From Minisyncoccota bacterium (GTDB taxonomy: Bacteria > Patescibacteriota > Minisyncoccia > Phycocordibacterales > PALSA-1337): a DNA stretch of 64,000 nt. This document shows positions 5,617-60,656 of this stretch, piece after piece (the first letter of the stretch is position 1; every line of letters starts with the position of its first letter). The translations under genes were made by a program, and so were the position numbers. A model generated the notes under the pieces. The model was not told the DNA's origin, did not search any database, and saw nothing but the letters and a program-made list of their open reading frames with translations. The stretch lies in assembly GCA_036170235.1 (NCBI GenBank), contig JAVHOW010000016.1, positions 5,511 through 69,510 on the forward strand, given 5' to 3'.

Positions 5617-7170
5617 TTAAACCTTCTCCACCGTCCTTATCGCTTCTATTCTATCTCCTGGCGCGACTTCAACTTTGGCATCTAATAACATACCAAACTC
5701 GAATCCTTCACGGACTTCATCCGTAGTTTTCTTTGCCTGCTGGAGTCCGCGTATTTTACCACGACCAATCTCGGCCTCACGACGCATGATACGTACTTCA
5801 TTTCCAGTAAAAATAGAGCCAGTTTCAACTTTGCCACCAACTACTTGCTTATCTTTTTCTTTTGAGAATAAAGCCATGATTTTGGCGCGGCCGGTCATTT
5901 CCTCGACATATTCTTTTGGAACTTTTGCCATGAGCGCGTCTTTGACATATTGCGTGAGTTCGTAAATTATACTGAAGTTTTTGACCGAAAGAGGAATCGC
6001 CGAACGTTCAATCATACTTTCAGCGCCTTTTTCCGGTGCGGCGTTGAAACCAATCAGAAGAATAGTTGGATCGCCGAGCGCTGTCTTCACATCATTTTCA
6101 TTTATGTCACCAATTCCTTCAGAGACAATTTTTAACTGGACTTTGTCATGTGTAACTTTTGCCAATTCATGCTTGACGCCATCGAGACTACCTATGACGT
6201 CGGCTTTAATAATGATTGGGACAATAACAATTGCCGGCTCTTCTTTTCCTGTCTTAGTTTTTTCGGTGATAGTAGAAACAGTTCTCATTTCATGTTCGTA
6301 TGCTTCTACCATTTTCTCCGCCCCTTTTTTGCTTGTTGTAGTCACAAAATCAATTCCACATGCCGGCATAGTATTCCAACCGAGAATTTTGATCGGCATT
6401 GCGGCAGTAGCAATCTCCACTTTTTCTCCTTTGAAATTTTCAATGAAACGAACTGGCGTGAATGCGTTGCCGGCAACCACAAATTCTCCTAGTTTTAGCG
6501 AACCATTTTTCAGAAGTAATGTCGCGGAAATACCTTTGCGCGTATCAAGTGTTGACTCAATGACACTGCCGGTTGCATTCAAACCTAAGTCAGCTTTTAG
6601 GTCAGCCAATTCTGTTACAAGCAGGAGCATGTCGAGTAGTTCAGGAACACCTTTGCCAGTCACTGCCGAAACTTCAACGCAAGGAACATCGCCACCCCAA
6701 CCTTCGACGTATATTTCATTTTCACCGAGACTTTGTTTGGCGCGTTCAATGTTCGCGTTCGGTTTGTCGATCTTGGTGATAGCAACGATGTAAGGGATTT
6801 TGGAATTTTTAATAATTTTGTAAGCTTCAACGGTCTGTGGTTTTACTCCATCTTCGGCAGATACGGCAAGAATTGCGACATCAGCAACCTGCGCGCCACG
6901 TTCGCGGATACCGCAGAAGGCTTCGTGACCAGGCGTGTCCAAGAAAGTCAGCATAGTTTTTTTGCCTTCAGGTGAAGTGTGTTCAACTTGGTACGCTCCC
7001 ATGTGCTGGGTTATACCGCCAGCCTCGCCAGCAACAATGTTGGTTTTGCGGATATAGTCGAGCAAAGTCGATTTGCCATGGTCAATATGCCCCATGACTA
7101 CAATCACAGGAGGACGCTCTGTATGCGAGGCCGTGACGATCAGGTTTTTATGATGTTTGGTAGGCATGGT
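5617..7170 (-). CDS. infB: Translation initiation factor IF-2, short form lacking the long N-terminal region.
   Basis: G domain GHIDHGKST, DTPGHEAF, NKID. Likely start is MPTKHH. The track ORF extends to 7242. Confidence 0.9.
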   Translation of the reverse strand, partial: TMPTKHHKNLIVTASHTERPPVIVVMGHIDHGKSTLLDYIRKTNIVAGEAGGITQHMGAYQVEHTSPEGKKTMLTFLDTPGHEAFCGIRERGAQVADVAILAVSAEDGVKPQTVEAYKIIKNSKIPYIVAITKIDKPNANIERAKQSLGENEIYVEGWGGDVPCVEVSAVTGKGVPELLDMLLLVTELADLKADLGLNATGSVIESTLDTRKGISATLLLKNGSLKLGEFVVAGNAFTPVRFIENFKGEKVEIATAAMPIKILGWNTMPACGIDFVTTTSKKGAEKMVEAYEHEMRTVSTITEKTKTGKEEPAIVIVPIIIKADVIGSLDGVKHELAKVTHDKVQLKIVSEGIGDINENDVKTALGDPTILLIGFNAAPEKGAESMIERSAIPLSVKNFSIIYELTQYVKDALMAKVPKEYVEEMTGRAKIMALFSKEKDKQVVGGKVETGSIFTGNEVRIMRREAEIGRGKIRGLQQAKKTTDEVREGFEFGMLLDAKVEVAPGDRIEAIRTVEKV

Positions 7171-7351
7171 AGTAGTAAATCGGCGCGATGCGCGCTTGCA
7201 CATTAGAGAATAGAGTGTAGCAGAAATGATGAAGTTTGACAATCACTATTTCTATATGGTGATGTCATGAGTCATTATGTATTTTATTTCTATCTACAAG
7301 GATTTATTGTCTAAAAATGTTCCGCGCGCTATAGTAAACAAATCTAACTTT

Positions 7352-9604
7352 ATGCCTAAAACACCATTCACCCTCGCAACGCCATTCGAGCCTGCTGGCG
7401 ACCAGCCGAAGGCAATTTCCGCATTGACGGATGGTCTCGCTAAAGGTTTTGACCGCCAGACATTGCTTGGGGTGACTGGGTCCGGTAAAACCTTCACCGC
7501 TGCAAATGTCATAGCTCAATATGGCAAACCTACGCTCATAATTGCTCACAACAAAACATTGGCTGCCCAACTCGCGCAAGAGTATCGAGAATTTTTTCCA
7601 AATAACGCCGTGCATTATTTTGTTTCTTATTATGACTACTATCAGCCAGAAGCATATATTCCGTCGAGTGATACTTATATCGAAAAAGAGGCGATGATAA
7701 ATGAAGAGATCGAACGTCTGCGCCACGCTTCGACGCAAGCACTTTTGACGCGCAAGGATGTCATCATTGTGGCGTCAGTTTCCTGTATTTATGGTTTGGG
7801 CAGTCCAGAAGAATATGAAAAAGTTAATTTGAAATTGAAAGTCGGCATGGAACTTTCGCGCGCGGAACTTATTCGCAAATTGATTGACATCCATTTCGAG
7901 CGCACGACTGCTGATCTTACGTCTGGTCAATTTCGCGCTATTGGAAACACTGTGGAAATCATGCCAGTGAACGAGAAGACTATTTATCGGTTGGAATACG
8001 GAGGTGACACCTCCGGAGGTAGCACCTCGATTGCCACTATTACTGAACTGGATCCTGTTTCAAGATCGGTTCGTAATGGTAGCTTAGGGACTTCCTCGCC
8101 AGCATTACTTGAACCACGGACTATTTTCATTTTTCCAGCAAAGCATTTCATTTCTAGTGATGAACAAAGTGCGCGTGCTTACAAAACTATTCAAGCAGAA
8201 TTGACAGATCGACTCAAGGTTCTGGAGAAATCAGGAAAATTGTTGGAAGCAGAGCGTTTGAAGCGTCGGGTCAAATACGATCTTTCTATGATTAAAGAAA
8301 TTGGTTACACAAACGGTATCGAAAATTACTCTCGTCATTTTTCTGGAAAAATGCCAGGCGAGCCACCGGATTCTCTGCTTTCATATTTTCCATCGACTAC
8401 GCTCGGGACAGGTCCGAATGCCAAGAAAGTTCCTGATTTTCTGACTATTATTGATGAGTCTCACGTTACAATTCCACAATTGAATGGAATGTATGCTGGA
8501 GATTTTTCGCGTAAGGACACATTAGTCGAACACGGTTTCAGATTACCATCTGCAAAAGATAATAGGCCGTTAAAGTTTGCTGAATTTCTGGAGCGCGTTG
8601 GTCCGATAATTTATACTTCGGCAACGCCGGGAAAATATGAGGCAGAGACAAACAGCCAGGTTGTTGAGCAAGTCATCCGTCCGACGGGTCTCGTCGACCC
8701 GGTCGTGGAGATACGACCTATAAGGGAGTCGTCACATGTTCGTACGGAGCGACTTTCGGAGCGAGCGAAGGCGAGTGAGAAGGAGGTGTCGGCTGAGCAC
8801 AGCCGAACACCGTTCGCGGAGGGCGAACATGTGACGACTCCCTACATGGGTCAAATCTTTGACTTCATCGCCGAAGCTGAAAAAACTATTGCAAAAGGCG
8901 ACCGCGTGCTCGCTACCACATTAACCAAAAAAATGGCCGAAGACCTGTCCGAATTCCTTAAGGAAAAAAATATCAAAGCCTCCTATTTGCACAGTGACGT
9001 CAAGACTATCGAGCGCATAAATATTCTGACTGATTTTCGCAAAGGGAAGTACGATATTCTGGTTGGCGTTAACTTGCTTCGTGAAGGTCTGGATCTGCCA
9101 GAAGTTTCTCTCATAGGCATTCTCGACGCTGACAAAGAAGGTTTCCTCCGTTCCGAAACCGCGCTAATTCAAACTATCGGTCGCGCCGCTCGTAACGCCG
9201 CTGGTAAAGTGATTCTCTACGCCGACAATCTCACTGGTTCAATGGATCGCGCTATCAAGGAGACTAACCGTCGTCGCGCTATCCAGGTGGCATATAATAC
9301 CAAACATGGCATTACCCCGCAGACTATTATCAAAGCCATCCACGACATCACTGATCAGTTGCGCACCAAACATGACAAAGCCGTCAACGAGCTCGTCAAG
9401 ATTGATGAAGAACTGGCTCGCACCAATCCGAAGTTGTTGATGAAACAAAAGCAAGCGGCCATGGAGGAGGCGGTCAAGATGTTGGATTTCGAGACCGCGG
9501 CGTTGGTGAGGGATGAACTTATTGCGATTGAAGAGAAGTGGGGGAGGGAGAAAAAAGCGGTGGCGAAGAAGTTGAAGGAGGAGGGGAGGAAAACTAAAAT
9601 CTAG
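7352..9604 (+). CDS. uvrB: Excinuclease ABC subunit B, with two in-frame inserted palindromic elements.
   Basis: PAGDQP, Walker A GSGKT, the helicase motifs and a C-terminal UvrB/UvrC interaction coiled coil. Likely start is MPKTPF. Confidence 0.9.
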   Translation: MPKTPFTLATPFEPAGDQPKAISALTDGLAKGFDRQTLLGVTGSGKTFTAANVIAQYGKPTLIIAHNKTLAAQLAQEYREFFPNNAVHYFVSYYDYYQPEAYIPSSDTYIEKEAMINEEIERLRHASTQALLTRKDVIIVASVSCIYGLGSPEEYEKVNLKLKVGMELSRAELIRKLIDIHFERTTADLTSGQFRAIGNTVEIMPVNEKTIYRLEYGGDTSGGSTSIATITELDPVSRSVRNGSLGTSSPALLEPRTIFIFPAKHFISSDEQSARAYKTIQAELTDRLKVLEKSGKLLEAERLKRRVKYDLSMIKEIGYTNGIENYSRHFSGKMPGEPPDSLLSYFPSTTLGTGPNAKKVPDFLTIIDESHVTIPQLNGMYAGDFSRKDTLVEHGFRLPSAKDNRPLKFAEFLERVGPIIYTSATPGKYEAETNSQVVEQVIRPTGLVDPVVEIRPIRESSHVRTERLSERAKASEKEVSAEHSRTPFAEGEHVTTPYMGQIFDFIAEAEKTIAKGDRVLATTLTKKMAEDLSEFLKEKNIKASYLHSDVKTIERINILTDFRKGKYDILVGVNLLREGLDLPEVSLIGILDADKEGFLRSETALIQTIGRAARNAAGKVILYADNLTGSMDRAIKETNRRRAIQVAYNTKHGITPQTIIKAIHDITDQLRTKHDKAVNELVKIDEELARTNPKLLMKQKQAAMEEAVKMLDFETAALVRDELIAIEEKWGREKKAVAKKLKEEGRKTKI
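8000..8029 (+). repeat. Double mini-hairpin GGAGGTGACACCTCC GGAGGTAGCACCTCG, in-frame inside uvrB, encoding GGDTSGGSTS.
   Basis: Perfect 15-nt palindrome followed by a near-copy. It lies in a 17-aa region that is extra relative to E. coli UvrB, recalled from memory. Confidence 0.55.
8723..8843 (+). repeat. ~121-nt GC-rich palindromic element with 19-20-nt terminal inverted repeats, inserted in-frame in uvrB.
   Basis: TIRs gggagtcgtcacatgttcg / cgaacatgtgacgactccc. The core gactttcggagcgagcgaaggcgagtgagaaggagg... is ~85% identical to a copy in uvrA. It accounts for a ~40-aa insertion between the EVRP and RVLxTTLTK regions of UvrB. Confidence 0.75.
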
Positions 9605-20150: not shown

Positions 20151-20301
20151 ATAATTACTAACCTCTCACGGCTTCAATATGGTCGCTTTATCAGCCCTAA
20201 TCAAGTATACAATTATGGCAGATGCACCAATATGTCCATCATGTTCACACCCAGCTCATTCGGGTAAAAAGTGCGAAACGTGTGAATGTGTCAAGTAAAT
20301 C

Positions 20302-20340
20302 AAAAAACCACCCTGAGTTTTTATCGAAGGGTGGTTTTTT
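20302..20340. terminator. Bidirectional rho-independent terminator. Copy 1 of an identical 39-nt hairpin repeat.
   Basis: aaaaaaccaccctgagtttttatcgaagggtggtttttt between convergent units. Its reverse complement is identical to 60616..60656. Confidence 0.7.
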
Positions 20341-23262: not shown

Positions 23263-23562
23263 ATGAAACTCCAAACACATCTCGAAAACCTACGCGCAAA
23301 ACCAGAACATATCCGCAAAAGGATAGCTTTTTGGTCATCATTCGGAATTACTGCAATTATCTTTGCATTTTGGCTGGGTTCATTTTCTATTACTGGAAGT
23401 ACGGCAAGTGGTGCCGTGGCTTCTGCGGTCTCAAAAGCTGGTAGTCCTGGAAGCTCGCTGATTGCAGGCGTCGGAAACTTTTTTGTTGATATAAAGGAGA
23501 TGCTTTTTGGTGCGAAGAAGATCAAATATAGTGAGGTTGTGGTGACGCCGGGGAGTAAATAG
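23263..23562 (+). CDS. Hypothetical small membrane protein.
   Basis: One TM helix. The stop is immediately followed by a REP palindrome. Confidence 0.35.
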   Translation: MKLQTHLENLRAKPEHIRKRIAFWSSFGITAIIFAFWLGSFSITGSTASGAVASAVSKAGSPGSSLIAGVGNFFVDIKEMLFGAKKIKYSEVVVTPGSK

Positions 23563-24121
23563 TCCAAGGTCCGACCTTGGATAGGATGTTATTTTGTGGT
23601 CTCTTTTCACCCAAGTAATCTTTGAAACTTGAGAACTCATAGACCTTCGAATATTCGACTGCTCTATCATAGTGCTCATATCTTACTTCTCTCAACATAT
23701 CTGGTTCTTCAATACCAAAAGGGTTTAAATGTATATATTCAATAATACGAGCTAAATATTGATCGGTATCAATAGTTTTTGCTTTATATTTTCCTTGAAA
23801 TATTGTGCCCGAGTGATTATATTTTTTATTGAAATACATTACATACGCGGTACAGAGTTTTCTAACAAATTGTTCAACTTGCTGATCAGTTTCGACCATA
23901 AGTCCCAAATGAAAATGATTTGGCATAAGACAATACGAGAATATATCCACGAGATTTTGTTGTCGGTCTATAGAAAAAATATCAGATTTATTCAATTTGA
24001 AAACTAGAGGCTTTGAATCATTCGCTATATACAACAAACAGACAAAGCGTTGATAATCGCTCTTATCATTGAATATAGGCGCTTTATGAGCACCGCGATT
24101 GTAGATATGGTAGTAAGGCAT
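23522..24121 (-). mobile_element. IS200/IS605-like Y1 (HUH) transposase of the REP-associated tyrosine transposase (RAYT) type, flanked by two REP-like palindromes.
   Basis: YHIYNRGAHKAPIF and LMPNHFHLGL give the HUH motif as HFH plus a catalytic Tyr region. REP copies lie at 23563 and 24126 in inverted arrangement around it. The likely start MPYY is just inside the upstream REP. The track ORF extends to 24178 with GTG. Confidence 0.7.
23563..23581. repeat. REP-like 19-bp perfect palindrome TCCAAGGTCCGACCTTGGA, copy 1, at the 3' side of the RAYT gene.
   Basis: Exact palindrome seen in the sequence. Confidence 0.9.
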
Positions 24122-24125
24122 TTGT

Positions 24126-24144
24126 TCCAAGGTCAGACCTTGGA
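24126..24144. repeat. REP-like palindrome TCCAAGGTCAGACCTTGGA, copy 2, at the 5' side of the RAYT gene.
   Basis: Exact palindrome with a variable centre base. Confidence 0.9.
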
Positions 24145-24153
24145 CAACATATT

Positions 24154-24208
24154 CTATCAAACCGGAATGAAGAAACACTGAAGAAACGATAAAGAAGTAA
24201 TGAAGAAA
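24154..24208. repeat. ~45-bp repeat tatcaaaccRgaatgaagaaacactgaagaaacgataaRgaagtaatgaaga, copy A.
   Basis: Near-identical to 28475..28525 and 44725..44765. It lies at the 5' end of the minus-strand RAYT unit. Confidence 0.7.
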
Positions 24209-24496: not shown

Positions 24497-24699
24497 TAAG
24501 GCATTCTTATGGAATCGTGCGGTGATAGAATCGGTTCTGTTGTCAATGGTTTTTGTTGATCTTAATTAGACGTGCCGGTAGTTTCATAGTTGACCTTTAA
24601 TTTTTTCTTATTTCTACTATGTATATTCTCATCTAATACACACAATGTCAAGCTGACACCACACCTTATTTTTGCTACAATTAAGTGGTAAAATAATTT

Positions 24700-24718
24700 T
24701 CCAAGGTCGGACCTTGGA
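24700..24718. repeat. REP-like palindrome TCCAAGGTCGGACCTTGGA, copy 3, 8 nt upstream of the gyrA start codon.
   Basis: Exact palindrome overlapping the expected RBS region of gyrA. Confidence 0.9.
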
Positions 24719-24725
24719 GTGATTC

Positions 24726-28373: not shown

Positions 28374-28474
28374 AGTATTATCTGTTCACAAAAATGGAAG
28401 AATTGTGCTTCATGACATGTCACCATACTGATATTAATAAATGGATATGTCGACACATAACCTTATATACCGTA

Positions 28475-28525
28475 TCAAATCGAAATGAAGAAACACTGAA
28501 GAAACGATAAAGAAGTAATGAAGAT
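28475..28525. repeat. ~45-bp repeat, copy B, between the RR stop and the HK start.
   Basis: tatcaaatcgaaatgaagaaacactgaagaaacgataaagaagtaatgaaga. Confidence 0.7.
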
Positions 28526-29211: not shown

Positions 29212-29312
29212 GAGCGTATGTTATTATTTAGTACGCTAAATATAACATAGTTGTGTAAGATGTCGAGGTTGTCTTACGTCATATATAGGTATAAGCTGTT
29301 GACATCTATTTG

Positions 29313-29331
29313 TCCAAGGTCCGACCTTGGA
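29313..29331. repeat. REP-like palindrome TCCAAGGTCCGACCTTGGA, copy 4, upstream of the 29360 gene.
   Basis: Exact palindrome 28 nt upstream of the ATG. TTGACA lies 9 nt further upstream. Confidence 0.9.
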
Positions 29332-29359
29332 TATGAATTAACTTCTAATTACTATTATC

Positions 29360-34006: not shown

Positions 34007-34015
34007 ATTTAAATG

Positions 34016-34034
34016 TCCAAGGTCTGACCTTGGA
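34016..34034. repeat. REP-like palindrome TCCAAGGTCTGACCTTGGA, copy 5, in the rplD-rplW spacer.
   Basis: Exact palindrome between L4 and L23 inside the operon. Confidence 0.9.
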
Positions 34035-34048
34035 CAAACTAAACCACC

Positions 34049-39806: not shown

Positions 39807-40403
39807 TTGAATTTCAATATCATGTCATATAAAACAGTATCAGAATTAAATAAAGAATCTTACTCAACACTCAAGGAAAAGTTGGGACTTAAGAATCCGA
39901 TGCAAGCACCACGCCTGGTCAAAGTCGTGGTATCCAATGGTTTCGGTTCAGTAAAGGATAAGAAAAAGATTGAGCTCATCGCTGATCGTCTCGCCAAGAT
40001 CACTGGTCAGAAACCAGCTGTTCGTGCGACTAAGAAAGCTATCGCTACATTCAAGACTCGCCAAGGTGACGCTGTCGGCTATCAGATCACTCTTCGTGGT
40101 CCTCGCATGACAGAATTCCTCGATCGTCTCATCCACGTCGCTCTACCTCGCACCAAAGACTTCCGTGGTCTCGCTCGTACATCAGTTGACGCTATGGGAA
40201 ATTACACTATGGGTATAAAGGAGCACACTATTTTCCCCGAAACTTCCGATGAAGATTTGAAAGATGTCTTTGGTTTCGCTATTACGATTGTTACAACTTC
40301 CAGTGATAAAAAAGCGACGTTGGCGTTTCTAGAACATATTGGTATGCCATTGAAGAGGGAGCCCACCTCCGCTGAAGCTACGGAGGGCAAGGAGGTGAAG
40401 TAG
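39807..40403 (+). CDS. rplE: 50S ribosomal protein L5 with a C-terminal extension encoded by a palindromic repeat module.
   Basis: L5 core. Alternative start MSYKT at 39822. The C-terminus ...KREPTSAEATEGKEVK is extra. Confidence 0.9.
   Translation: MNFNIMSYKTVSELNKESYSTLKEKLGLKNPMQAPRLVKVVVSNGFGSVKDKKKIELIADRLAKITGQKPAVRATKKAIATFKTRQGDAVGYQITLRGPRMTEFLDRLIHVALPRTKDFRGLARTSVDAMGNYTMGIKEHTIFPETSDEDLKDVFGFAITIVTTSSDKKATLAFLEHIGMPLKREPTSAEATEGKEVK
40364..40397 (+). repeat. Hairpin repeat module cacctccgctgaagctacggagggcaaggaggtg, in-frame at the rplE 3' end.
   Basis: Nested inverted repeats cctccg/cggagg and cacctcc/ggaggtg. 28 nt are identical to a copy inside gyrB at 56609. Confidence 0.8.
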
Positions 40404-40454
40404 GTTGTCTTAAATAAGTGGAAAATAGCCTTACAAAATAAGGTTATTTTTGTA

Positions 40455-40483
40455 AAAACACCCGTTCGGAAGGGTGTTTTTTT
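40455..40483. terminator. Bidirectional terminator after rplE.
   Basis: aaaaacacccgttcggaagggtgttttttt. Confidence 0.65.
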
Positions 40484-40511
40484 CTTTACTTAACTGATAA
40501 TTTTCTAACTA

Positions 40512-41588
40512 TTAAATCCCACTCGTCGTAGTACTCATAACCTGCCCTGAAGTCACAGTATTCCCACTAGCATCCACGGACTGGACCTTGAAATAGTAAG
40601 CTGTACTTGTAGCCAATCCCATGACTGAAATGGAGTGGTTCAGTGTTAGTGCACTATTGGTGATGAATGAAGTCGTACTTGCATTCACATCCAAAGGATT
40701 TGTACTCGAGTAGAACACCTTTGAAGTTGCGAGCTCATCAGTTGTCCAAACAATAGTTGTGGTTGAAGCGCCTGGAGTTGCAGTTAGAGCACTAATAACT
40801 GGAGGTGTGACATCAGCTGGAACAATTACACTGCCAGTATGAGCAGAGAATGTCGATGAAGTGGTCACGTTGCCAGATGTATCAGTTGATTCAATGACAA
40901 GGTAATAAGTCGTATTTGGTGTAAGTCCTGACAACGTAAGCAAGTGAGTCTTGGTAGTACTTGCATTGGAAACATACGAAGTCGTGCTTGCATTCAACAC
41001 AACAGGAAGAATTGTTGAATAATAGACGCGATCGGTTGTATTTTCATTTGTTTTCCAACCGACTTTGATGGTTGAAGTTCCGAGAACAGTCACAACGTTA
41101 CTGATGACTGGAACTTTGGTATCAGCCGATGGCGAGGAATTATTGCCATGGAACTTCTTATTGATACCGAATGGTAACCAGCAATTTAAAACATTGGTGT
41201 CAGAAGTACCATTATTCTTTATCCAACCAGGTGCGACCAGATGACCGTATGCCTTGAAACATTTGCCGAATGCAGAGTTTTTATTTGAATTTGAAGACGA
41301 ATCTTTTTCTGATTTTGATTCAGATTCATGTGAATTTGACCTTGTAGAAGTTGAAATATGAGAATTTAAATTGTTGGACTTTTTATCATGCTCAACTTCA
41401 CTATCTATATGATTCGAATTGGAATTTGAAGTAGAAACTGTTACCGAACGCTCGACACGGTTTTTGCCGTGGTCATTATTATTTTCTTTTTCATTCTTAT
41501 TATTTTCTTTAGCAAAACTAACTAGGGGACTCATGACAAGAGCGAGTGCGAGTGTGCCAATGGCGAAAGAGGTAATGTAATTTTTCAT
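40512..41588 (-). CDS. Secreted protein with a signal peptide, a His/Ser/Asn-rich low-complexity region and two FN3-like domains.
   Basis: Signal peptide. Repeated ...TVTSSTFSAHTG / TTYYLVIESTDTSGN and AYYFKVQSVDASGN motifs. Confidence 0.6.
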   Translation of the reverse strand: MKNYITSFAIGTLALALVMSPLVSFAKENNKNEKENNNDHGKNRVERSVTVSTSNSNSNHIDSEVEHDKKSNNLNSHISTSTRSNSHESESKSEKDSSSNSNKNSAFGKCFKAYGHLVAPGWIKNNGTSDTNVLNCWLPFGINKKFHGNNSSPSADTKVPVISNVVTVLGTSTIKVGWKTNENTTDRVYYSTILPVVLNASTTSYVSNASTTKTHLLTLSGLTPNTTYYLVIESTDTSGNVTTSSTFSAHTGSVIVPADVTPPVISALTATPGASTTTIVWTTDELATSKVFYSSTNPLDVNASTTSFITNSALTLNHSISVMGLATSTAYYFKVQSVDASGNTVTSGQVMSTTTSGI

Positions 41589-41807
41589 AAAAATTGTTAT
41601 GTGTAATTAATTTATAATCTACTTATAGTACTTTGTAATATTTGTCAGCTTAATAAAAGCCAACAGATTATATAAACGGACTAGAAACATAAACCTTACA
41701 TCGACACAACTGCACATTTATTGTATATTCTATTAGCACTCAACCTATCAGGAATTGCTGAAATTCGCAGAAAACGTAAGAATAGCGCCATTCATTCGTT
41801 ACACATC

Positions 41808-42413
41808 ATGAATACCGATAATCATATAAACAAGCTCAGAAGCACCTTTACTGACATATACAACACAGAGGCAGATTCTTTGTTTCGTTTTTGTCTTATT
41901 CGAGTCAGCGATCGAGAACAAGCGCTTGATTTGGTTCAAGAAATATTCACTCGCTTTTGGCAGACAATGAATCAAGAAGGTCGGCACATAGACTATCCGC
42001 GAGCTTTTCTTTTCACAGTCGCACGGAATGCTATCATTGATTGGTATCGCAAAAAGAAAAGTATTTCTTTGGAAAGCATGGCTGATCCTGAAACAGATGA
42101 ACCGTATGAAGCAATTCAAGATTCAGATCTAATGGATAGTAAATTGGAAGGCGAGGGGCGATTCCTGATTTCTGCCATAAGTAAATTGAGTTCTGGTCAC
42201 CGCGACGCTATCTATCTCCGATTTGTTGAAGGATTGTCACCTCCAGAAATTGCCAAGATCTTGGGGATATCAACCAACGCAACATCAGTTAGAATTACCA
42301 GAGGAATTGAAGAATTACGGAAATTGACAGGATATGACATTGAGATCGATGGTGGAGATAATTTTTCTAAAGAAGGAGGTGCGGATACAGCAGATAAATT
42401 AGAGTCAAAATAA
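41808..42413 (+). CDS. ECF (sigma-70 family group 4) RNA polymerase sigma factor.
   Basis: Region 2 DLVQEIFTRFW and region 4 HTH ...EIAKILGISTNATSVRITRG. Likely start is MNTDN. The track ORF starts at 41721. Confidence 0.8.
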   Translation: MNTDNHINKLRSTFTDIYNTEADSLFRFCLIRVSDREQALDLVQEIFTRFWQTMNQEGRHIDYPRAFLFTVARNAIIDWYRKKKSISLESMADPETDEPYEAIQDSDLMDSKLEGEGRFLISAISKLSSGHRDAIYLRFVEGLSPPEIAKILGISTNATSVRITRGIEELRKLTGYDIEIDGGDNFSKEGGADTADKLESK

Positions 42414-42417
42414 AAAC

Positions 42418-43509
42418 ATGAAAGACACACGATTCAACAAAGCAATAAAAGATATAAAGAATATATCCATGACATCTGCGGAAAAGCGAATGGTCTTTGA
42501 ATGTGTGATGAAGACTACGCCAATTAAAAGTACTTGGACTGTGTATTCTTTTGGTAAGTGGATACAGACGCATCGCTCAATTTCAGCTTTAGTGTTTATT
42601 GTAATTGTTATTTCGGCGGGAAATTCTGCCGTATTAGCCTCACGTAACACACTTCCTGGTGACACGCTTTATCCGATCAAAGTTAATATGGTTGAACCGA
42701 TTCGCGTTGCCTTTGCTCCAACTCCAAGGATTAAGGCGGAGATTCAGACTGAATTGGTACAGAGTCGTTTGCAAGAAGCAGAAACCTTGGCGGCGCGAGG
42801 TCAGCTCAATGATGGAAAAGAGCAAAGTTTAAATCAGCGTATTGATCAACAAGTTTCCGATTTGACTGCAAATATTAATGAAGTAAAAAAAACGTCACCT
42901 GAAAAAGCTGATGATATTAGTACGACGTTAGAAGCAAGCATCAATGCTCACACACGAATACTCGATGTTATTGCCGTCAATCGTGGTGAATCTCATAGTA
43001 ATAGCAAAGAAAATGGCGCCATTAACGTAGATGGAGCCGTTACGTCTGCTATGGTGGCATCGTCATCAATGTCAGAATCGACACAAACTTCAAGAACTTC
43101 TTTGAAACTTAATAAAAAGTCAGAATCAAAAGATGAGTCAAAGAACAATAAAAAGTATTCAAAAAGAAAAGAATCGGTGGAATCATTAATCCAATCAACA
43201 ACCGCTGATGTTGCAGGTGCGACTACAACAGCTACATCTTCATTACTTCAGGAAACTATAGTTAATGATGCGCGTATCAACCTTGATCATGCCCAAGAGA
43301 AACTACAAGAAGCTCAAAATCATAATAGTAATGGTAATTCTAGTGAAGCCTATTCGGCACTGATTGATTCTGAACGCGCCACAAAAGAGGCGGCGTTGTT
43401 TATAAAGGCTACATCACGACTGGAGAAGGAGGTAAAAAATGAGGAGATAAATGCTTCTTCACATGGGAACAATAATGTCCAAGGTGGTCAATCGGGTAAA
43501 GTGGAATAA
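42418..43509 (+). CDS. Putative membrane anti-sigma factor (DUF5667-like) cotranscribed with the ECF sigma.
   Basis: Immediately downstream of sigma, with a 4-nt gap. Single TM helix and a coiled, low-complexity extracytoplasmic region. Confidence 0.5.
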   Translation: MKDTRFNKAIKDIKNISMTSAEKRMVFECVMKTTPIKSTWTVYSFGKWIQTHRSISALVFIVIVISAGNSAVLASRNTLPGDTLYPIKVNMVEPIRVAFAPTPRIKAEIQTELVQSRLQEAETLAARGQLNDGKEQSLNQRIDQQVSDLTANINEVKKTSPEKADDISTTLEASINAHTRILDVIAVNRGESHSNSKENGAINVDGAVTSAMVASSSMSESTQTSRTSLKLNKKSESKDESKNNKKYSKRKESVESLIQSTTADVAGATTTATSSLLQETIVNDARINLDHAQEKLQEAQNHNSNGNSSEAYSALIDSERATKEAALFIKATSRLEKEVKNEEINASSHGNNNVQGGQSGKVE

Positions 43510-43672
43510 GGCGGACTGACTAACCTCACATACATACTGCACTCATTAATCAAATGGGCGCAAAATGAAAATACACTCAAAATATCGAGGGATTAAGGGG
43601 TTTGTGGCGTAGATTGTTTTTGGGAACATTGAAATAAACCAACGAAAAAACCAATAAACGAAAGAGAAACTT

Positions 43673-44187
43673 ATGGCCCATGTTATCGAATGTAGATTTT
43701 GTGATGGTACATCATTAAACCATGACCACGATGAATGTGCTCAAGAGTTTGGTTTGAGCGTGGAGCGGAGAATTTTAGAACACACAACTAGATATCTTGA
43801 AACTCCTTTACCGCAAACGATTATTAACGAGCTCAAAAGTGATTGTTGGAAATGGTACCTGGAATATCTCGATCTTATATATTTCCACAAGTTAATTATT
43901 CCCATCTTATTCAAAATAGAACAGGATCACATTATGAAGATAGGAGATATAGAAGCCACATTGAACGCAAATCTGCTGATTTCGTTGTTTGTGATAAAAA
44001 GACATGTGTACCATGTTTAGTTATTGATATTGATGGAAGTGTACATAATAGATTAGATATACATGAAAAAGATGCAGAGATAAATCAAATACTTAATGCT
44101 ATTGGGTTACCAATATTACGTTTAACCAATGAAGATTCAAGGGATAGAGAACTTGTTAAAAACAAAGTCTTTGGAATGATTAAGTAG
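43673..44187 (+). pseudogene. Frameshifted DUF2726 (NERD/nuclease-related) gene with an N-terminal Cys/His cluster.
   Basis: Two overlapping ORFs, 43673..44020 and 43843..44187, in different frames. The second carries the DUF2726-like pattern SADFVVCDKKTCVPCLVIDIDGSVHNRLDIHEKDAEINQILNAIGLPILRL. Confidence 0.5.
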
Positions 44188-44304
44188 TCAACCAATAATG
44201 GGTAGTTATAAATTTGACTTTCGAAATATTTTTTGCTAATATAATTCAAGTTACTAGTCGCCAATAATTGGCAATTGAACCCGCCCACAAGGCGGGTTCC
44301 GACA

Positions 44305-44718
44305 TTACACCAAATCTTTCATGTACCTCCTTATTACCTGAAAATCTTCGTAAGAAATAGTGTCAATGTAGCGATCTAATCTTTTAGTGCTGACTAAGCG
44401 TAATTGATGGATCTTTGCCACACGAGTAATACCACCGCAAATAAAAGTGTAATGAATTCTGCTTTCTTTTGGCCACTTTTTTGTTGTGAGAGGAATAATC
44501 CATAAAGTCTCATCAGTAAATATACGAAATATAATCACTGGTCTGATAAAATTATCACCTTTACCATCCTCTTCACTACCGATATTGCAACCAAGAAAAC
44601 ACCACCAGATATCCCTTTCCTTGAATATGAGTCTTTCTTTTTTATCATGAACAATTTTTTTCTTTATGTTCCATGAATCAAAGTTCTTTATATGTTGTTT
44701 TGCTATTCTTGTATCCAT
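44305..44718 (-). CDS. PemK/MazF-family toxin (mRNA interferase-like).
   Basis: IRPVIIFRIFTDETLWIIPLTTKKW resembles the RPxlVls...vaPiTs core of MazF/PemK. No antitoxin is evident. Confidence 0.5.
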   Translation of the reverse strand: MDTRIAKQHIKNFDSWNIKKKIVHDKKERLIFKERDIWWCFLGCNIGSEEDGKGDNFIRPVIIFRIFTDETLWIIPLTTKKWPKESRIHYTFICGGITRVAKIHQLRLVSTKRLDRYIDTISYEDFQVIRRYMKDLV

Positions 44719-44724
44719 CTTCCA

Positions 44725-44765
44725 ACTCTATCAAACCAGAATGAAGAAACACTGAAGAAACGATA
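44725..44765. repeat. ~45-bp repeat, copy C, directly upstream of the PemK-like gene start.
   Basis: tatcaaaccagaatgaagaaacactgaagaaacgataagga. Confidence 0.7.
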
Positions 44766-45040
44766 AGGATGACCTTCTTTCAGCTTCGACTCGGATGTTG
44801 TGCCTGCGAGCAGTCACACATCCTCGCTTGCTGAAATAAAGAAACAGTGAAGATTTTCAAATTTGACTTCCTCACACCCATTTGTTAGTATATCCACACC
44901 TTCATAAACCAAGGTTTTTCATACAAAACAGTGATTGGAAGCACACCCTTAACGGGATAGCTAACCAGTCCTCATTTTTTTGAGAAAAATTGCAAGCAAG
45001 TCACTTGAAAGAGTGCGTCGCCAACCCAAAATATCACCTT

Positions 45041-45226
45041 ATGGCAAAAACATCAGTCATCGTACGATCCCAAAAGAAGCCGAAATTCAAGTCGCGCGTC
45101 GTTCGACGTTGTTTCCGATGTGGACGTAAGCGCGGATATATGAGAGATTTCGATCTCTGCCGTATTTGTTTCCGAGAATTCGCAAACGAAGGTGTGATTC
45201 CTGGCATCAAGAAGTCTTCATGGTAA
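45041..45226 (+). CDS. rpsZ: 30S ribosomal protein S14 type Z (zinc-binding).
   Basis: 61 aa, [16 protein letters not shown]...[20 protein letters not shown], with four Cys. Confidence 0.9.
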
Positions 45227-45264
45227 TAACTAATTTTTTCATTTTCCACTTTTAATTAACTATT

Positions 45265-52513: not shown

Positions 52514-53878
52514 ATGAAAATTTCCTACACACAACTGCAAACATACCTTGAAGACAAACTTCCAACACCAGAAAAGTTGGCTGACGCTTTCACTTTTCAT
52601 GCATTCGAAATCGAGAGTATGGAGAAGGAGGGTGACGATACCATTTTAGACATAAAAGTTTTGCCAGATCGCGCTTGTTACGCAAAATCTTATGAAGGTA
52701 TTGCGCGAGAAGTGTCGGCGATTCTTGGTTTGAAAAAGAAAGCAGAAAAAGTGAAAATTCCCGATTCGAAGCACACGATTACTGTTTCAATTTCTCAAAT
52801 AAATGAAGTGCTTGGTTCGGATATTTCACAAAAAGAAGCGGTTTCGATTTTGACTAGAATGGACATTAAAGTTACAGAAAAAGGGGATATTCTCGAGCTC
52901 TCAGTACCCTGCGATAGGCTTGATTTGCAGTCATGGCGCGATATTCCCGAGGAAGTTGGACGTATTTATGGTTATGACAAAATTAAGTCGATTTTGCCAA
53001 AAAATACTACATTTAAGCCTATTGTTGAGAAAGCATTTTATTACACTGAAAAGATCAAGAATATTCTAGTTTCTGCGGGTTTTTCCGAAGTTTACACCTA
53101 CAGTTTAGTTGCAAAAGGCGTGTATGAAATCGAGAAACCTTTGGCGGCTGATAAGAATCATTTGCGAACAAATCTGACTGATGGAATAGTGAAGTCGCTT
53201 GAGTTCAACGCACGAAATGCTGATTTGCTTGGCTTGGATGAGATTAAAATCTTTGAGATTGGTAAAGTGTTTACAAAAGATGGCGAGCACACTTCGTTGT
53301 GTGTTGGGATAAAAAATATCAAGAAAGCAAAAGGTGCTGAGTTGGCAAAAGAAAAAATTAAAAAAGTTCGCGACGAGGTGCTTAAAGTTCTTGAAGTAAA
53401 TGCGACTATTCTCTGCACGGTTGATGATTCTGGCGGAATTATTTCTTTGAATGTGGAAGCGGTTGGTATGACCAATAATTCAGACGGGATTTTCGAAATT
53501 AATCTTGATAAAGTGGTGGCGACGTTATCGGAGCCTAATTCGTATGCGGATCTCAATTTTAGTAAGGCTACAACGATAGAATACAAGAAGTTTTCTGTAT
53601 ATCCGTTCATTGTGCGCGATATAGCTGTTTTTGTCCAAGGTCCGACCTTGGACACTGAAGTTTGGTCTGTAATAGAAAAAGTTCTGAATGAGGTTGGTGC
53701 CGCGAATTTATTGGCTCATCATTCATTGTTCGATACATTCAAAAAAGATGGCAAAGTTTCGTACGCTTATAGGATGATATTCCAATCTATGGAAAAAACT
53801 CTAACAGATGACGAGGTTAATTCTATTATGGAAAAAATTTATGCTGAAATAAAAGGTAAGGGTTGGGAGGTGAGGTAA
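52514..53878 (+). CDS. pheT: Phenylalanine--tRNA ligase beta subunit, short form (454 aa).
   Basis: B1 N-terminus MKISYTQLQTYL. B3/4, B5 and the FDX-ACB C-terminus (FPFIVRDIAVFV). It contains a REP palindrome in-frame. Confidence 0.85.
   Translation: MKISYTQLQTYLEDKLPTPEKLADAFTFHAFEIESMEKEGDDTILDIKVLPDRACYAKSYEGIAREVSAILGLKKKAEKVKIPDSKHTITVSISQINEVLGSDISQKEAVSILTRMDIKVTEKGDILELSVPCDRLDLQSWRDIPEEVGRIYGYDKIKSILPKNTTFKPIVEKAFYYTEKIKNILVSAGFSEVYTYSLVAKGVYEIEKPLAADKNHLRTNLTDGIVKSLEFNARNADLLGLDEIKIFEIGKVFTKDGEHTSLCVGIKNIKKAKGAELAKEKIKKVRDEVLKVLEVNATILCTVDDSGGIISLNVEAVGMTNNSDGIFEINLDKVVATLSEPNSYADLNFSKATTIEYKKFSVYPFIVRDIAVFVQGPTLDTEVWSVIEKVLNEVGAANLLAHHSLFDTFKKDGKVSYAYRMIFQSMEKTLTDDEVNSIMEKIYAEIKGKGWEVR
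53634..53652. repeat. REP-like palindrome TCCAAGGTCCGACCTTGGA, copy 6, inside the pheT coding sequence (encodes VQGPTLD).
   Basis: Exact 19-mer within the ORF. The ORF length is unchanged relative to the expected PheT spacing. Confidence 0.9.
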
Positions 53879-54044: not shown

Positions 54045-54497
54045 ATGACTAATATGACTATTTCACCTATACAACCAATTCGAGGGGATTACGTTACAAA
54101 AGGAGAGTTCGGAGAATTCAAAGCTGAAATGCGCAATTTTCACTTCGGGTTCAATGATTTTAGAGAGGAGATGTATATTTTCAAAGATGATGTCTCAAAA
54201 CGCTTTGATGCCGTAGATGCACGCTTTGGTGCTGTAGATTCACACTTTGATGCTGTTGATGCACGCTTTGATGCTGTTGATTCACGGTTTGATGCTGTTG
54301 ATGCTCGATTTGATTCAATAGATGCTCGATTAGGTTCACATGATACACGTTTAGCTGGTATTGATAAACGGATCGATGTATTAACCAAGAGTCTGTTTGA
54401 ATTTCGTGAGGAAGTTCCACGATATATGAAAACGTTACAAGAAGGATTTCGTGAGGATCTTAGAATAGCGCTCGAAATACATAGCACTCAAAAATAA
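54045..54497 (+). CDS. Heptad-repeat protein with 8 tandem xFDAVDxR units, probably coiled-coil.
   Basis: RFDAVDARFGAVDSHFDAVDARFDAVDSRFDAVDARFDSIDARL is encoded by 21-bp tandem DNA repeats. Confidence 0.55.
   Translation: MTNMTISPIQPIRGDYVTKGEFGEFKAEMRNFHFGFNDFREEMYIFKDDVSKRFDAVDARFGAVDSHFDAVDARFDAVDSRFDAVDARFDSIDARLGSHDTRLAGIDKRIDVLTKSLFEFREEVPRYMKTLQEGFREDLRIALEIHSTQK
54205..54372 (+). repeat. Tandem 21-bp repeats (8 units, degenerate) inside the 54045 CDS.
   Basis: tttgatgccgtagatgcacgc / tttggtgctgtagattcacac / tttgatgctgttgatgcacgc ... Confidence 0.8.
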
Positions 54498-54697: not shown

Positions 54698-56869
54698 ATG
54701 GCAACCGAAAAAGAGACCAAAAAAAATAAGAAAAATCCTGAAAAAGGCACCGGTAAAGGTGGTTATGATTCCTCATCAATCACCGTACTAGAAGGTCTAG
54801 AACCAGTGCGCAAGCGTCCTGGAATGTATATTGGCACAACTGGACCAGATGGTCTTCACCACCTCATCACAGAAATTTTCGACAACTCTCGTGACGAGGC
54901 TATGGGTGGTTTTGCCAATGATATTGAGATCGTACTTTTGCCAAACAATCGTGTTCGCGTAGTTGATAATGGTCGCGGTATTCCAGTAGATGTACACAAG
55001 CAGACCAAAATTTCCGCATTGGAAATGGTTATGACAGTTCTTCATGCTGGAGGCAAATTTGGCGGTGAAGATAGTGGGTATAAAGGTGCTACAGGAGGTC
55101 TTCATGGTGTCGGTGCGTCGGTGGTCAATGCTTTGTCAGTGTACGCGCAGGTTTTGGTGCACAAGGACGGTGGTATTTATATGCAGGAATATTCGATCGG
55201 CAAACGCAAAGCCGCGGTGAAAAAGATTGGTTCAAGTAAACTTCATGGAACTATCGTGACTTTCCAACCAGATTCAGAAATTTTCAAAGAAGGTGTTGTT
55301 TTCGATTTCAATCGTGTAGTCAATCATATGCGCCAACAAGCGTATCTAGTTCGTGGACTTCGGATCAGTGTTATTGATGCGCGTGGTCAGGTTGCTGGTT
55401 TTGGTTCAGATAATGAACTATTTTATATTCGCGATACTGGTGTTGACGCGCCATCCTACACTTTCTTTTTCGAAGGAGGTTTGGTTTCATTGATCAAATT
55501 TACCAATCAACTCTACAAACCGATCCACAAAAATATTTTCTATGTTGAGAAAAAGGTAGAAGGTGTGGAGTCAGTCGAAGTTGCTTTGCAGTATTCCGAT
55601 GATGTTTCATCGCGTGTTATGGCTTTTGCGAACAATATTAGCAACCCAGAAGGAGGCACACACATAACTGGTTTCAAGACGTCACTCACTCGTACTTTGA
55701 ATACTTATGCAAAAAATAACAATTTGTCGAAAAATGGCGAAGATAGCTTCACTGGTGATGATGCTTTGGAAGGACTGACATCTGTTGTTTCAGTCAAACT
55801 TCGTGAAGTCCAGTTTGAAGGTCAAACCAAGGCCAAACTCGGCTCTATGGAGGCTCAGGGCGCCGTAGCGACTGTTTTTGGTGATGCGTTCGCAGCATTT
55901 TTAGAGGAAAATCCTGACGATGCGCGTGGTATCATTAACAAAGTTATTTTGGCTATGAAGGCCCGTAAGGCCGCCAAAGCCGCCAAAGATTCAGTTTTGC
56001 GCAAAGGTGCTTTGGAAGGTATGACTTTGCCTGGCAAGCTCGCTGATTGCCAGTCGAGTGATCCTGCGGAATCCGAAATCTTCATCGTAGAAGGAGACTC
56101 TGCTGGTGGTACTGCCAAACAAGGTCGTGATCGTCGCATCCAAGCTATTCTGCCACTTCGCGGAAAAATTTTGAACATTGAACGCGCGCGGTTAGATCGT
56201 ATGCTCGGTTCAGAACAGATCAAGAATCTGGTCTTGGCATTCGGTACAGCGATCGGTGATACATTCGATATTTCCAAACTTCGTTATCACAAAATTATTT
56301 TAGCAACAGATGCTGACGTTGACGGTGCGCATATTCGCACACTTATTTTGACGCTTTTGTATCGTTATTTCCGTCCACTCATCGATGGTGGCCACGTTTA
56401 CATTGCTCAACCACCCTTGTACAAGGTGAAAAAAGGCAAAGAAATTCTTTATTTCTATAGTGATGAAGAAAAGATCAGGGCGCTCGGCAAGGAGGCTGAA
56501 ACTATTGAACAAGCGGAAGCTGACCTTGATATGCAAGATGCAAATAATATCCAATCACGAGCCGAACTTCTGGAGCGTGCTGAAGCAGAATCGGACGCAG
56601 AATTGGCACCCTCCTCCGCTGAAGCTACGGAGGGCAAGGAAGGGAAGACACCAAAAATTTCAATCCAGCGCTATAAGGGTCTTGGTGAAATGAACCATTA
56701 TGAACTTTGGGAGACCACTATGGATCCAGCTCGTCGCATTCTTCGCCAAGTGACTGTTGATGATGCACAAGATGCGGATAAGGTGTTCGATATGCTGATG
56801 GGTGATGATGTTCCTGCTAGAAAATCATTTATTCAAAGCAATGCGAAGTTGGCGACGTTGGATATTTAG
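54698..56869 (+). CDS. gyrB: DNA gyrase subunit B, with a C-terminal-region insertion that includes a palindromic repeat module.
   Basis: GHKL ATPase (EIFDNSRDEAMGG, GLHGVGAS), Toprim (EGDSAGG), and C-terminal QRYKGLGEMN. Confidence 0.93.
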   Translation: MATEKETKKNKKNPEKGTGKGGYDSSSITVLEGLEPVRKRPGMYIGTTGPDGLHHLITEIFDNSRDEAMGGFANDIEIVLLPNNRVRVVDNGRGIPVDVHKQTKISALEMVMTVLHAGGKFGGEDSGYKGATGGLHGVGASVVNALSVYAQVLVHKDGGIYMQEYSIGKRKAAVKKIGSSKLHGTIVTFQPDSEIFKEGVVFDFNRVVNHMRQQAYLVRGLRISVIDARGQVAGFGSDNELFYIRDTGVDAPSYTFFFEGGLVSLIKFTNQLYKPIHKNIFYVEKKVEGVESVEVALQYSDDVSSRVMAFANNISNPEGGTHITGFKTSLTRTLNTYAKNNNLSKNGEDSFTGDDALEGLTSVVSVKLREVQFEGQTKAKLGSMEAQGAVATVFGDAFAAFLEENPDDARGIINKVILAMKARKAAKAAKDSVLRKGALEGMTLPGKLADCQSSDPAESEIFIVEGDSAGGTAKQGRDRRIQAILPLRGKILNIERARLDRMLGSEQIKNLVLAFGTAIGDTFDISKLRYHKIILATDADVDGAHIRTLILTLLYRYFRPLIDGGHVYIAQPPLYKVKKGKEILYFYSDEEKIRALGKEAETIEQAEADLDMQDANNIQSRAELLERAEAESDAELAPSSAEATEGKEGKTPKISIQRYKGLGEMNHYELWETTMDPARRILRQVTVDDAQDADKVFDMLMGDDVPARKSFIQSNAKLATLDI
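56607..56647 (+). repeat. Hairpin repeat module caccctcctccgctgaagctacggagggcaaggaaggg, in-frame in gyrB (encodes PSSAEATEGKEGK).
   Basis: A 28-nt stretch cctccgctgaagctacggagggcaagga is identical to the rplE copy. Confidence 0.8.
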
Positions 56870-60598: not shown

Positions 60599-60615
60599 TT
60601 ATTTAACATCTAAAT

Positions 60616-60656
60616 CAAAAAACCACCCTTCGATAAAAACTCAGGGTGGTTTTTTT
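60616..60656. terminator. Bidirectional terminator. Copy 2 of the identical 39-nt hairpin repeat, in inverted orientation relative to 20302.
   Basis: aaaaaaccacccttcgataaaaactcagggtggttttttt. Confidence 0.7.

Follow-up and report, generated by a model that had tools for sequence, protein, structure and literature searches.

A 30-nt, partly palindromic repeat lying in frame in rplE and gyrB of a Minisyncoccota genome and at unrelated loci in several bacterial phyla

This study deals with a short sequence shared by the genes rplE and gyrB of a Minisyncoccota bacterium (GTDB lineage Bacteria; Patescibacteriota; Minisyncoccia; Phycocordibacterales; PALSA-1337), both located on a stretch of 64,000 nucleotides (assembly GCA_036170235.1, contig JAVHOW010000016.1, positions 5,511 to 69,510 of the forward strand), which is referred to as the window and in which positions are counted from the first letter. 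We interpret the two sites as copies of a discrete, GC-rich and imperfectly palindromic DNA repeat of 30 nt, which resembles the repetitive extragenic palindromes (REPs) and the Rickettsia palindromic elements (RPEs) and is tolerated in frame, and we assign this interpretation a probability of about 0.6. The unit is discrete, it is absent from orthologues, it occurs in many unrelated genes and genomes, in more than one reading frame as well as in non-coding DNA, and it shows no constraint at the level of the peptide. Literature searches by sequence, peptide and topic returned no description of the unit, nor of such elements in Patescibacteria, and the 30-nt family, as found across phyla, is apparently undescribed.

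The 28-mer CCTCCGCTGAAGCTACGGAGGGCAAGGA occurs at exactly two places in the window, 40366-40393 and 56613-56640, both on the plus strand, with 0 matches expected by chance (100 dinucleotide-preserving shuffles, up to 3 mismatches). It is part of a longer similarity between rplE and gyrB of 39 nt with 92% identity, which begins at 40362 and 56609 (family D7). An earlier reading of the DNA made from its letters alone, called here the sequence-only reading, had noticed the identical 28-mer and was right about its identity, but the start of 56609 that it gave for the gyrB copy is that of the 39-nt match. It had also assigned both copies to the frame of the host gene with the product SAEATEGKE, and the open reading frames (ORFs) agree: one frame is shared, giving P-T-SAEATEGK-EVK-stop in rplE and P-S-SAEATEGK-EGK in gyrB. 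The borders of the rplE copy were taken from an information profile of 70 flanks and from orthologues with an empty site. The features concerned are the following.

39822..40403, + strand: rplE (ribosomal protein uL5), host gene with the Pfam domains Ribosomal_L5 and Ribosomal_L5_C, whose C-terminal tail is lengthened by the unit
40362..40391, + strand: 30-nt unit in rplE, CCC ACC TCC GCT GAA GCT ACG GAG GGC AAG, encoding PTSAEATEGK, 4 codons before the stop
40366..40386, + strand: 21-nt core in rplE, CCTCCG / CTGAAGCTA / CGGAGG, the most conserved part of the family, 35.2 bits with covariance model R1
54698..56869, + strand: gyrB, host gene
56474..56641, + strand: acidic GyrB linker, specific to the lineage and exceeding that of S. 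aureus GyrB by ~49 aa, with the unit at its C-terminal end
56609..56638, + strand: 30-nt unit in gyrB, CCC TCC TCC GCT GAA GCT ACG GAG GGC AAG, encoding PSSAEATEGK
56613..56633, + strand: 21-nt core in gyrB, 35.2 bits with covariance model R1

The genome is Taylorbacteria-like and belongs to the Paceibacteria. In the 119 L5 orthologues closest to its protein (76-91% identity), only a few E/x/K residues come after ...PLKRE at the end, SAEATE being present in none of them, and in the DNA alignments the window carries 21-30 extra nt. The end of rplE in the window reads AAG AGG GAG [30-nt unit] GAG GTG AAG TAG, and three relatives, designated like all other loci by L numbers, serve as proxies for the empty site.

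L082: AAG AGG GAG / GAG GGG AAG AAG TAA
L080: GAG GAA GGA AAG AAA TAA
L069: GAG GAG GAG AGT AAA AAG AAA TAA

The sequence-only reading had credited the element with the last ~13 codons of rplE; this figure must be reduced to the 10 codons (30 nt) of the unit, as the final E-V-K-stop looks like the ancestral tail. It had correctly placed the gyrB copy within a lineage-specific insertion directly before QRYKGLGEMN. The length of this acidic linker is hypervariable in Paceibacteria (31-94 aa); the closest GyrB orthologue (L074, 84% identity) reads ...AEAEPDAEEIVIEGGKTKAPKISI there, with the 5' arm and the loop missing in the DNA, related words are found in other linkers (DAEATEAGK, VSAKATVGK, PASHKATQDK, DSAEATTGK), and at this position the GyrB of a Moraniibacteriota (L034) contains the 21-mer unchanged. 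Since the 119 L5 orthologues and the closest GyrB orthologue lack it, the peptide is not ancestral, and the refutation that the sequence-only reading had set for this case does not apply. A third comparison comes from other Patescibacteria, in which two S12 genes (L077 and L031) contain CCCTCCTCCGCTGAAGCTACGGAGGGCAAG between ...CCA ACA GAA and GAA GAG GCG CCA AAA..., and an 86%-identical S12 orthologue (L084) has the same flanks and no unit, which amounts to a clean 30-nt indel. Decayed copies exist at orthologous sites as well, namely in S12 (L085) and possibly in L5 of a more distant Taylorbacteria (L083), where the equivalent site reads CTC GCC TCT GTT GAA TCC ACG GCA AGC AAG, with 21/30 positions identical and the stem lost; the latter may be either a decayed copy or an old insertion at the same site.

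In the window, rplE and rpsH of the ribosomal-protein operon are separated by a gap of ~4.9 kb (40404-45264) with Pur_ac_phosph_N-like, sigma-70-like and DUF5667 genes. The relative L069 (91% identical) shows the same interruption in a longer form, and rplE-rpsN-rpsH are contiguous in the Taylorbacteria L083. Just upstream of gyrB, the ORF 54045-54497 contains a 21-nt tandem repeat of ~9 units with a 7-aa period (54179-54367, family D1).

An information profile built from 70 non-redundant flanks shows that conservation around the core falls to background at -4 and +5, whether the genomes are low-GC or high-GC. Because it ends so sharply, we regard the repeat as a discrete 30-nt unit, with the consensus NCC-YCC-TCC-GCT-GAA-GCT-ACG-GAG-GRC-ARG. 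When 185,579 species were scanned, each represented by one genome, the 21-nt core was found at 66 loci, as opposed to ~0.3 expected (2 x 5.96e11 / 4^21), distributed by record title as follows.

Patescibacteria: 21 loci
PVC group (Verrucomicrobiota, Kiritimatiellae, Lentisphaerae, Planctomycetes): 16 loci
Bacteroidota: 11 loci
Proteobacteria-labelled: 7 loci
Others: 11 loci

These labels should be read with caution, as several low-GC 'Gammaproteobacteria' contigs bear Patescibacteria-style genes. With the exception of a single isolate, Inquilinus sp. (L030), the loci come from metagenome-assembled genomes (MAGs; 65/66). The exact 28-mer is present on 5 further metagenome contigs, in the tails of uL3, uS12, bL12 and TatA; the fetched loci contain an excess of variants that differ at up to 5 positions (27 vs 2 in shuffles), and the decapeptide itself varies (PSSAEAMEGK, PSSAEAKESK, PSSAEALKGK). 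The earlier suspicion of a short, coding-tolerant and partly palindromic family is thus borne out by the 21-mer and its variants in other genes and genomes. A search across the genome had been proposed to find it, but the family extends far beyond one genome and spans several phyla.

In the low-GC Patescibacteria-like loci, every copy lies in a long ORF and in the SAEATE frame, and each of them is positioned outside Pfam domains or within an expanded loop. The host proteins and the positions of the unit are listed below.

uS12, uL3, bL19, bL17 and bS16: C-terminal tail
bL12: N-terminal extension, five loci
NusA: insertion inside the N-terminal domain or C-tail
GyrB: linker
RecA: C-terminal region
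TopA: between the zinc ribbon and the C-terminal repeats
SMC, and FtsK in the linker
E2 acyltransferase: lipoyl linker
TatA in the tail, GatC at the end, and MiaA

The sequence-only reading had proposed to check whether the copies always keep one frame; the frame giving Ser/Ala/Glu/Thr/Gly/Lys is the rule in Patescibacteria but not in the family as a whole, in which another frame, the antisense orientation and non-coding positions also occur. The TopA ORF of L057 contains two units 7 nt apart, the second of which is in the +1 frame and is read as LLRQGFEGQ. In a Verrucomicrobiota locus (L065, 2077-2151), 2.5 tandem units lie antisense in a prepilin-like N-terminal leader, directly before the cleavage motif G|FTLIE (...GGPVLRSFSGGG/FTLIEILIV). 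Two Bacteroidales loci (L032, L050) have the unit just upstream of tRNA genes, in what are taken to be tRNA 5' leaders, and in other GC-rich genomes it forms part of larger non-coding repeats. At two gene junctions it stops 2 nt before the ATG of rplD (L075) and 6 nt before the next ATG (L076), with GGAGG/AAGGA at ribosome-binding distance; a general role as ribosome-binding site, which would suit these two loci, was rejected as it does not suit the internal or N-terminal copies. Other recurrent words were seen in Patescibacteria in S12 tails (P0272, P0292, P0263) and GyrB linkers (P0183, P0167, P0138), namely EGGEPRPE(D/E)SGRE, PSTGSGQAS, SSATRRGGGK and ESRKLKVESEEG, which suggests several families of small inserted units and not one.

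Among 26 variants, substitutions are spread evenly over codon positions 1, 2 and 3 (31/31/26), and the changed codons comprise 61 non-synonymous and 16 synonymous cases. Because of this even spread, the copies outside the sense frame and the non-coding copies, the unit appears to be conserved as DNA and not as peptide. Its arrangement can be followed in head-to-tail arrays with an exact 30-nt register (L005, L039, L045, L054, L059, L065), and 25 of 27 nearby variants are on the strand of the exact copy by our tally. A composite of an 'A-type' unit (GCCRAGGCTTCGGAGGAT) followed by a standard unit is shared with 51/60 identical nt by L005 (1264-1323) and L059 (1366-1425), once within NusA and once within bL17 of a different genome, which implies that two units may be copied together in one piece. 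Half-units stand beside full units in L037 and L056.

If the two sites are copies of such a repeat, this Paceibacteria lineage would have acquired it at the DNA level, in rplE at the 3' end and in gyrB within the hypervariable acidic linker, and the unit would have spread by a strand-specific copy-and-paste process. Its persistence in essential genes could be explained by its length of exactly 10 codons and by a sense frame without a stop, which encodes the hydrophilic and probably disordered decapeptide P-[ST]-S-A-E-A-T-E-G-K; insertions would land only in tails and linkers, where added residues harm little, and a benefit to the host would not be needed. Our preferred guess for the process, which is tentative, is templated insertion or short-patch conversion via microhomology of the purine-rich 3' end (GGAGGRCAAGGAA) with runs of Glu/Gly/Lys codons. 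The 3' end of the unit is itself such a run (GAG GRC AAG GAA), and three of four empty sites have GGAGG or GAGGG.GGCAAG at or just past the insertion point. Microhomology with GA-rich codon runs would account for the copies in Patescibacteria being always sense and in frame. Alternatively, the mover may be a strand-specific hairpin enzyme acting in trans.

A number of observations weigh against a mobile repeat that is merely tolerated. Neither mismatch scans nor the covariance model R1 found further copies within the 64-kb window, so that the total remains at two; a 19-bit R1 match at 6663-6683 (minus strand) was treated as chance, the segment resembling, in our reading of the sequence, a conserved GTPase-type region. 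The filled/empty comparisons revealed no terminal inverted repeat, no target-site duplication and no duplicated flank, and no transposase turned up, although no screen of the window's genes was aimed at Y1 transposases. IMG/VR viral contigs gave 0 matches and PLSDB plasmids gave blastn matches at chance level only. The empty site of L086 lacks GGAGG, and the microhomology idea is based on three or four filled/empty pairs. All of the ~35 independent coding copies that we counted in Patescibacteria-like loci are in sense orientation; one antisense frame, LPSVASAEEG, should be tolerable in our reading of the sequence. Cumulative GC skew rises along the strand that bears both window copies, so orientation relative to replication is not separable here from orientation relative to transcription. 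In the decayed S12 copy of L085, the stem is kept by G.U pairs, which are workable only in the sense RNA. Finally, neutral selfish DNA would hardly be expected to keep a 21-30-mer perfectly identical from phylum to phylum. Taken together, these points leave room for a function.

Such a function would most likely reside in a hairpin of the sense RNA, i.e. the unit would be a nucleic-acid element under selection and the peptide a tolerated by-product, which we consider rather unlikely. The hairpin might act as a barrier to 3'-exonucleases, mask or present GGAGG/AAGGA at gene junctions, or bind a conserved protein. The core stem has 6 bp (CCTCCG/CGGAGG) and a loop of 9 nt; folded as RNA, the 21-mer reaches -8.2 kcal/mol (z = -2.7) and the opposite strand -10.5 kcal/mol. 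However, the 46-nt contexts fold no better than shuffles on either strand (z = -0.9 to +0.2), and for this reason the hairpin is judged to be real but weak. The description of the 28-mer as a hairpin module holds insofar as the stem can form, but the fold is weak and its support by covariation is modest. The flanking inverted complementarity that had been described for both genes is present in rplE, where CACCTCC (40364-40370) can pair with GGAGGTG (40391-40397) and vies with the inner stem for one 5' arm, but it is imperfect in gyrB (CCCTCC vs GGAAGGG).

In favour of a functional hairpin are the identity across phyla, the uniform sense orientation in Patescibacteria, the units 2 and 6 nt ahead of start codons, the G.U pairs of the decayed S12 copy, and a covariation above that of shuffled alignments: four pairs are changed on both sides, which 4/500 shuffles reach, and the covariation score is reached by 1/500. 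A hand tally of wobbles gave 11 U.G/G.U pairs vs ~6 C.A pairs, a difference that decides neither way. Against it, the unit is missing from the closest L5, GyrB and S12 orthologues, the L5 sequence of L083 has lost the stem at the same site, and the position varies from N-terminal, internal and C-terminal to non-coding, including the antisense units of L065. The contexts gain nothing in folding over shuffles, as mentioned above, 84.6% of the stem cells are paired and 15% are not, and the outer stem is missing in several variants. The most conserved part of the unit is the centre, CGCT-R-AAGCT-W-CGG. No Rfam family corresponds to the unit: at the gathering threshold, Rfam 15 recognised 4 tRNAs only in the whole window, and a local E-value search gave chance-level matches only. 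Likeness of the reverse complement (GTAGCTCAG) to a tRNA D-arm, an idea from the letters alone, was dropped as over-interpretation, as were similarities to 16S helix 45, the hammerhead CUGANGA motif, a CRISPR repeat and the Eco57I site CTGAAG.

It is improbable that the decapeptide PSSAEATEGK is itself selected, as a short linear motif or preferred linker with the DNA identity being secondary. The constant frame in Patescibacteria-like hosts, the location always in acidic disordered tails or linkers, and the L085 copy, which differs by 3 synonymous and 1 non-synonymous changes, would fit this explanation. However, the same codons are used across unrelated genes and phyla, and some members of the family are translated in a different frame (L057), lie antisense (L065) or fall outside coding sequence. 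Non-synonymous changes prevail, third positions show no excess, and close orthologues manage without the decapeptide.

Even less probable is an event private to this genome, in which rplE and gyrB would either resemble each other by chance in low-complexity regions rich in Glu/Gly/Lys or have undergone one ectopic gene conversion. The presence of two copies only in the window would agree with it, as would the 3' part (GAGGG.GGCAAG), which resembles what orthologues have at both sites; but chance matches are not expected, the 28-mer recurs in other genes of other genomes, the 21-mer is present at 66 loci and its variants exceed those in shuffles. An artefact of assembly or sequencing, such as a chimera or an adapter-like insertion, might be suspected from the dominance of MAGs and from the lack of matches in viral contigs and in plasmids of cultured bacteria, but it is practically negligible, as the L5 protein with its tail is found verbatim on contigs from two separate sequencing runs (SRR25490533 and SRR25490530; L067, L068), the insertions keep the frame and the gene runs on unbroken to either side of them, the copies at orthologous sites diverge naturally (L083, L085 and the protein variants), and the loci stem from many assemblers and studies and include one isolate. 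The chimera that the sequence-only reading had named as its own refutation is thereby contradicted for L5; the exact GyrB protein has no match on record, and the cross-check by two assemblies thus covers L5 only.

The nearest described systems are the intragenic REPs and the RPEs of Rickettsia. Intragenic REPs add 7-8 aa per unit in frame and often occupy genes of replication and repair (uvrA, uvrB, polA, recBCD), at N- or C-termini or in linkers; they occur in Verrucomicrobia (Opitutus terrae) and Planctomycetes, and G.T pairs in their stems hint at a role of the RNA (Di Nocera et al., 2013, PMC3733652). REPs are defined by an unpaired GTAG or CGTC at one end of the palindrome, and RPE-4 and RPE-6 were equated with CGTC REPs (PMC3733652). 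As a GC-rich stem-loop of 30 nt (6-bp stem, 9-nt loop), the unit falls within the 20-40 nt of REPs, its stem being modestly backed by covariation. However, the consensus NCCYCCTCCGCTGAAGCTACGGAGGRCARG has no terminal GTAG or CGTC, GTAG being present only in the loop of the complementary strand and CGTC nowhere. Its copies are arranged head to tail in 30-nt register, in contrast to REP dimers, which are mostly inverted (head-head or tail-tail), and its sequence is common to several phyla, while most REP families do not go beyond a species or genus. With regard to copy number as a trait of REPs, the window contains two copies and none weaker. No REP-associated tyrosine transposase (RAYT) turned up, with the same limit that the window genes were not screened for Y1 transposases. 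Neither the decapeptide nor the unit sequence is in the supplementary lists of PMC3733652, and membership in the GTAG/CGTC REPs was rejected on the basis of the tag, the dimer orientation and these absent strings.

RPEs are palindromic repeats lying in frame in unrelated housekeeping genes of a reduced genome, where they add a peptide compatible with protein function (PMC10969869). The unit likewise adds a peptide in frame to unrelated conserved genes. However, classical RPEs measure ~100-150 bp and are confined to Rickettsia, whereas the 30-nt unit extends over Patescibacteria, the PVC group, Bacteroidota and others. Miniature inverted-repeat transposable elements, or MITEs, measure at least ~50 bp and have terminal inverted repeats and target-site duplications; the only inverted repeat of the unit, in contrast, is the internal 6-bp stem, and its flanks are not duplicated. 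MITEs are non-autonomous and may also lie inside ORFs and supply coding sequence (PMC10969869). The palindromic amphipathic repeat coding elements (PARCELs) are repeats in coding sequence that show dyad symmetry and are scattered across phyla in a punctate manner, a pattern ascribed to horizontal transfer; they consist of 25-residue amphipathic units in long tandem arrays in proteins of unknown function (2010, PMC2996958). Dyad symmetry, coding capacity and patchy spread across phyla are shared with the unit, which differs in having 10 hydrophilic residues, in occurring singly or in small numbers (singly in both window genes), and in being found in conserved housekeeping proteins. Fungal mitochondria have GC-rich palindromic clusters and double-hairpin elements, which are likewise short GC-rich hairpins invading AT-rich genomes and enter coding regions in frame; they are organellar and lineage-specific and have no sequence relation to the 30-nt unit.

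Compared with known intragenic repeats, two traits are unusual, namely the size of 30 nt with strict coding compatibility and the cross-phylum identity without a visible vehicle. We therefore put forward, as a tentative proposal with a limited chance of being correct, that the unit might be one member of an undescribed class of ultra-small (30-nt, 10-codon), strand-specific and coding-compatible modules, which would spread inside phyla and from one phylum to another by a mechanism new for bacterial repeats (e.g. homology-guided templated insertion at GA-rich runs, or a hairpin-specific enzyme) and would be a general source of tails and linkers on ribosomal and DNA-handling proteins of Patescibacteria. 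If true, essential and conserved proteins of reduced-genome bacteria, among them uL5, uS12, uL3, bL12, bS16, NusA, GyrB, RecA and TopA, would have been lengthened by a 30-nt repeat and not by ordinary point and indel evolution. This would bear on the origin of the unusual extensions of Patescibacteria ribosomal proteins, on marker-gene alignments and phylogeny, since homoplastic 10-aa inserts may share a site in non-sister lineages, and on gene calling and annotation in MAGs.

A near-palindrome in uvrB had been proposed as a relative of the unit and is given here with its position.

8000..8029, + strand: near-palindrome GGAGGTGACACCTCCGGAGGTAGCACCTCG in uvrB, in frame, covering the 6-aa insertion TSGGST relative to solved UvrB structures

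The palindrome exists and folds well as DNA (z = -5.3), but its kinship lacks support: the covariance model of the family does not pick it up, and the conserved centre is missing. It was not accepted as kin, the only common feature being arms of the CCTCC/GGAGG type, a motif that is enriched throughout the window; GGAGGTG occurs at 19 sites vs 3.7 expected, a five-fold enrichment, and may be read as the ribosome-binding motif. Compared with Bacillus UvrB (2fdc), the product of uvrB (7277-9604) has four insertions, TSGGST, RNGSLGTSSPA, STTLGTGPNAKKV and a 38-aa segment, and conserved proteins of this genome seem to be peppered with short inserts. A GC-rich repeat of 74 nt, 85% identical between 8750-8823 in uvrB and 14871-14944 in uvrA, is read in different frames in the two genes and gives RLSERAKASEKEVSAEHSRTPFAEG in uvrB, where it lies within the 38-aa insertion missing from solved structures; the uvrB copy folds strongly as DNA (z = -4.7). 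This repeat is probably the first family that the sequence-only reading presupposed when it spoke of a second, shorter one.

Further repeats in the window belong to other families. A perfect palindrome of ~20 nt, (G/T)TCCAAGGTC-N-GACCTTGGA (family D2), is present in six copies, which according to the ORF list apparently lie between genes and would form a separate family of dispersed hairpins.

23562-23586: D2 palindrome
24125-24149: D2 palindrome
24699-24723: D2 palindrome
29312-29336: D2 palindrome
34015-34039: D2 palindrome
53633-53657: D2 palindrome

The AG-rich repeat TATCAAACCGGAATGAAGAAACACTGAAGAAACGATAAAGAAGTAATGAAGA of 52 nt (family D3) has three copies (24155-24206, 28473-28524, 44729-44780), one of which follows a D2 palindrome at a distance of 6 nt, so that the two may form a composite intergenic element. 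Two terminator-like hairpins at 20296-20340 and 60611-60655 have a common stem (AAAAAACCACCCT/AGGGTGGTTTTTT) and 13-nt loops that are reverse-complementary to each other (GAGTTTTTATCGA vs TCGATAAAAACTC).

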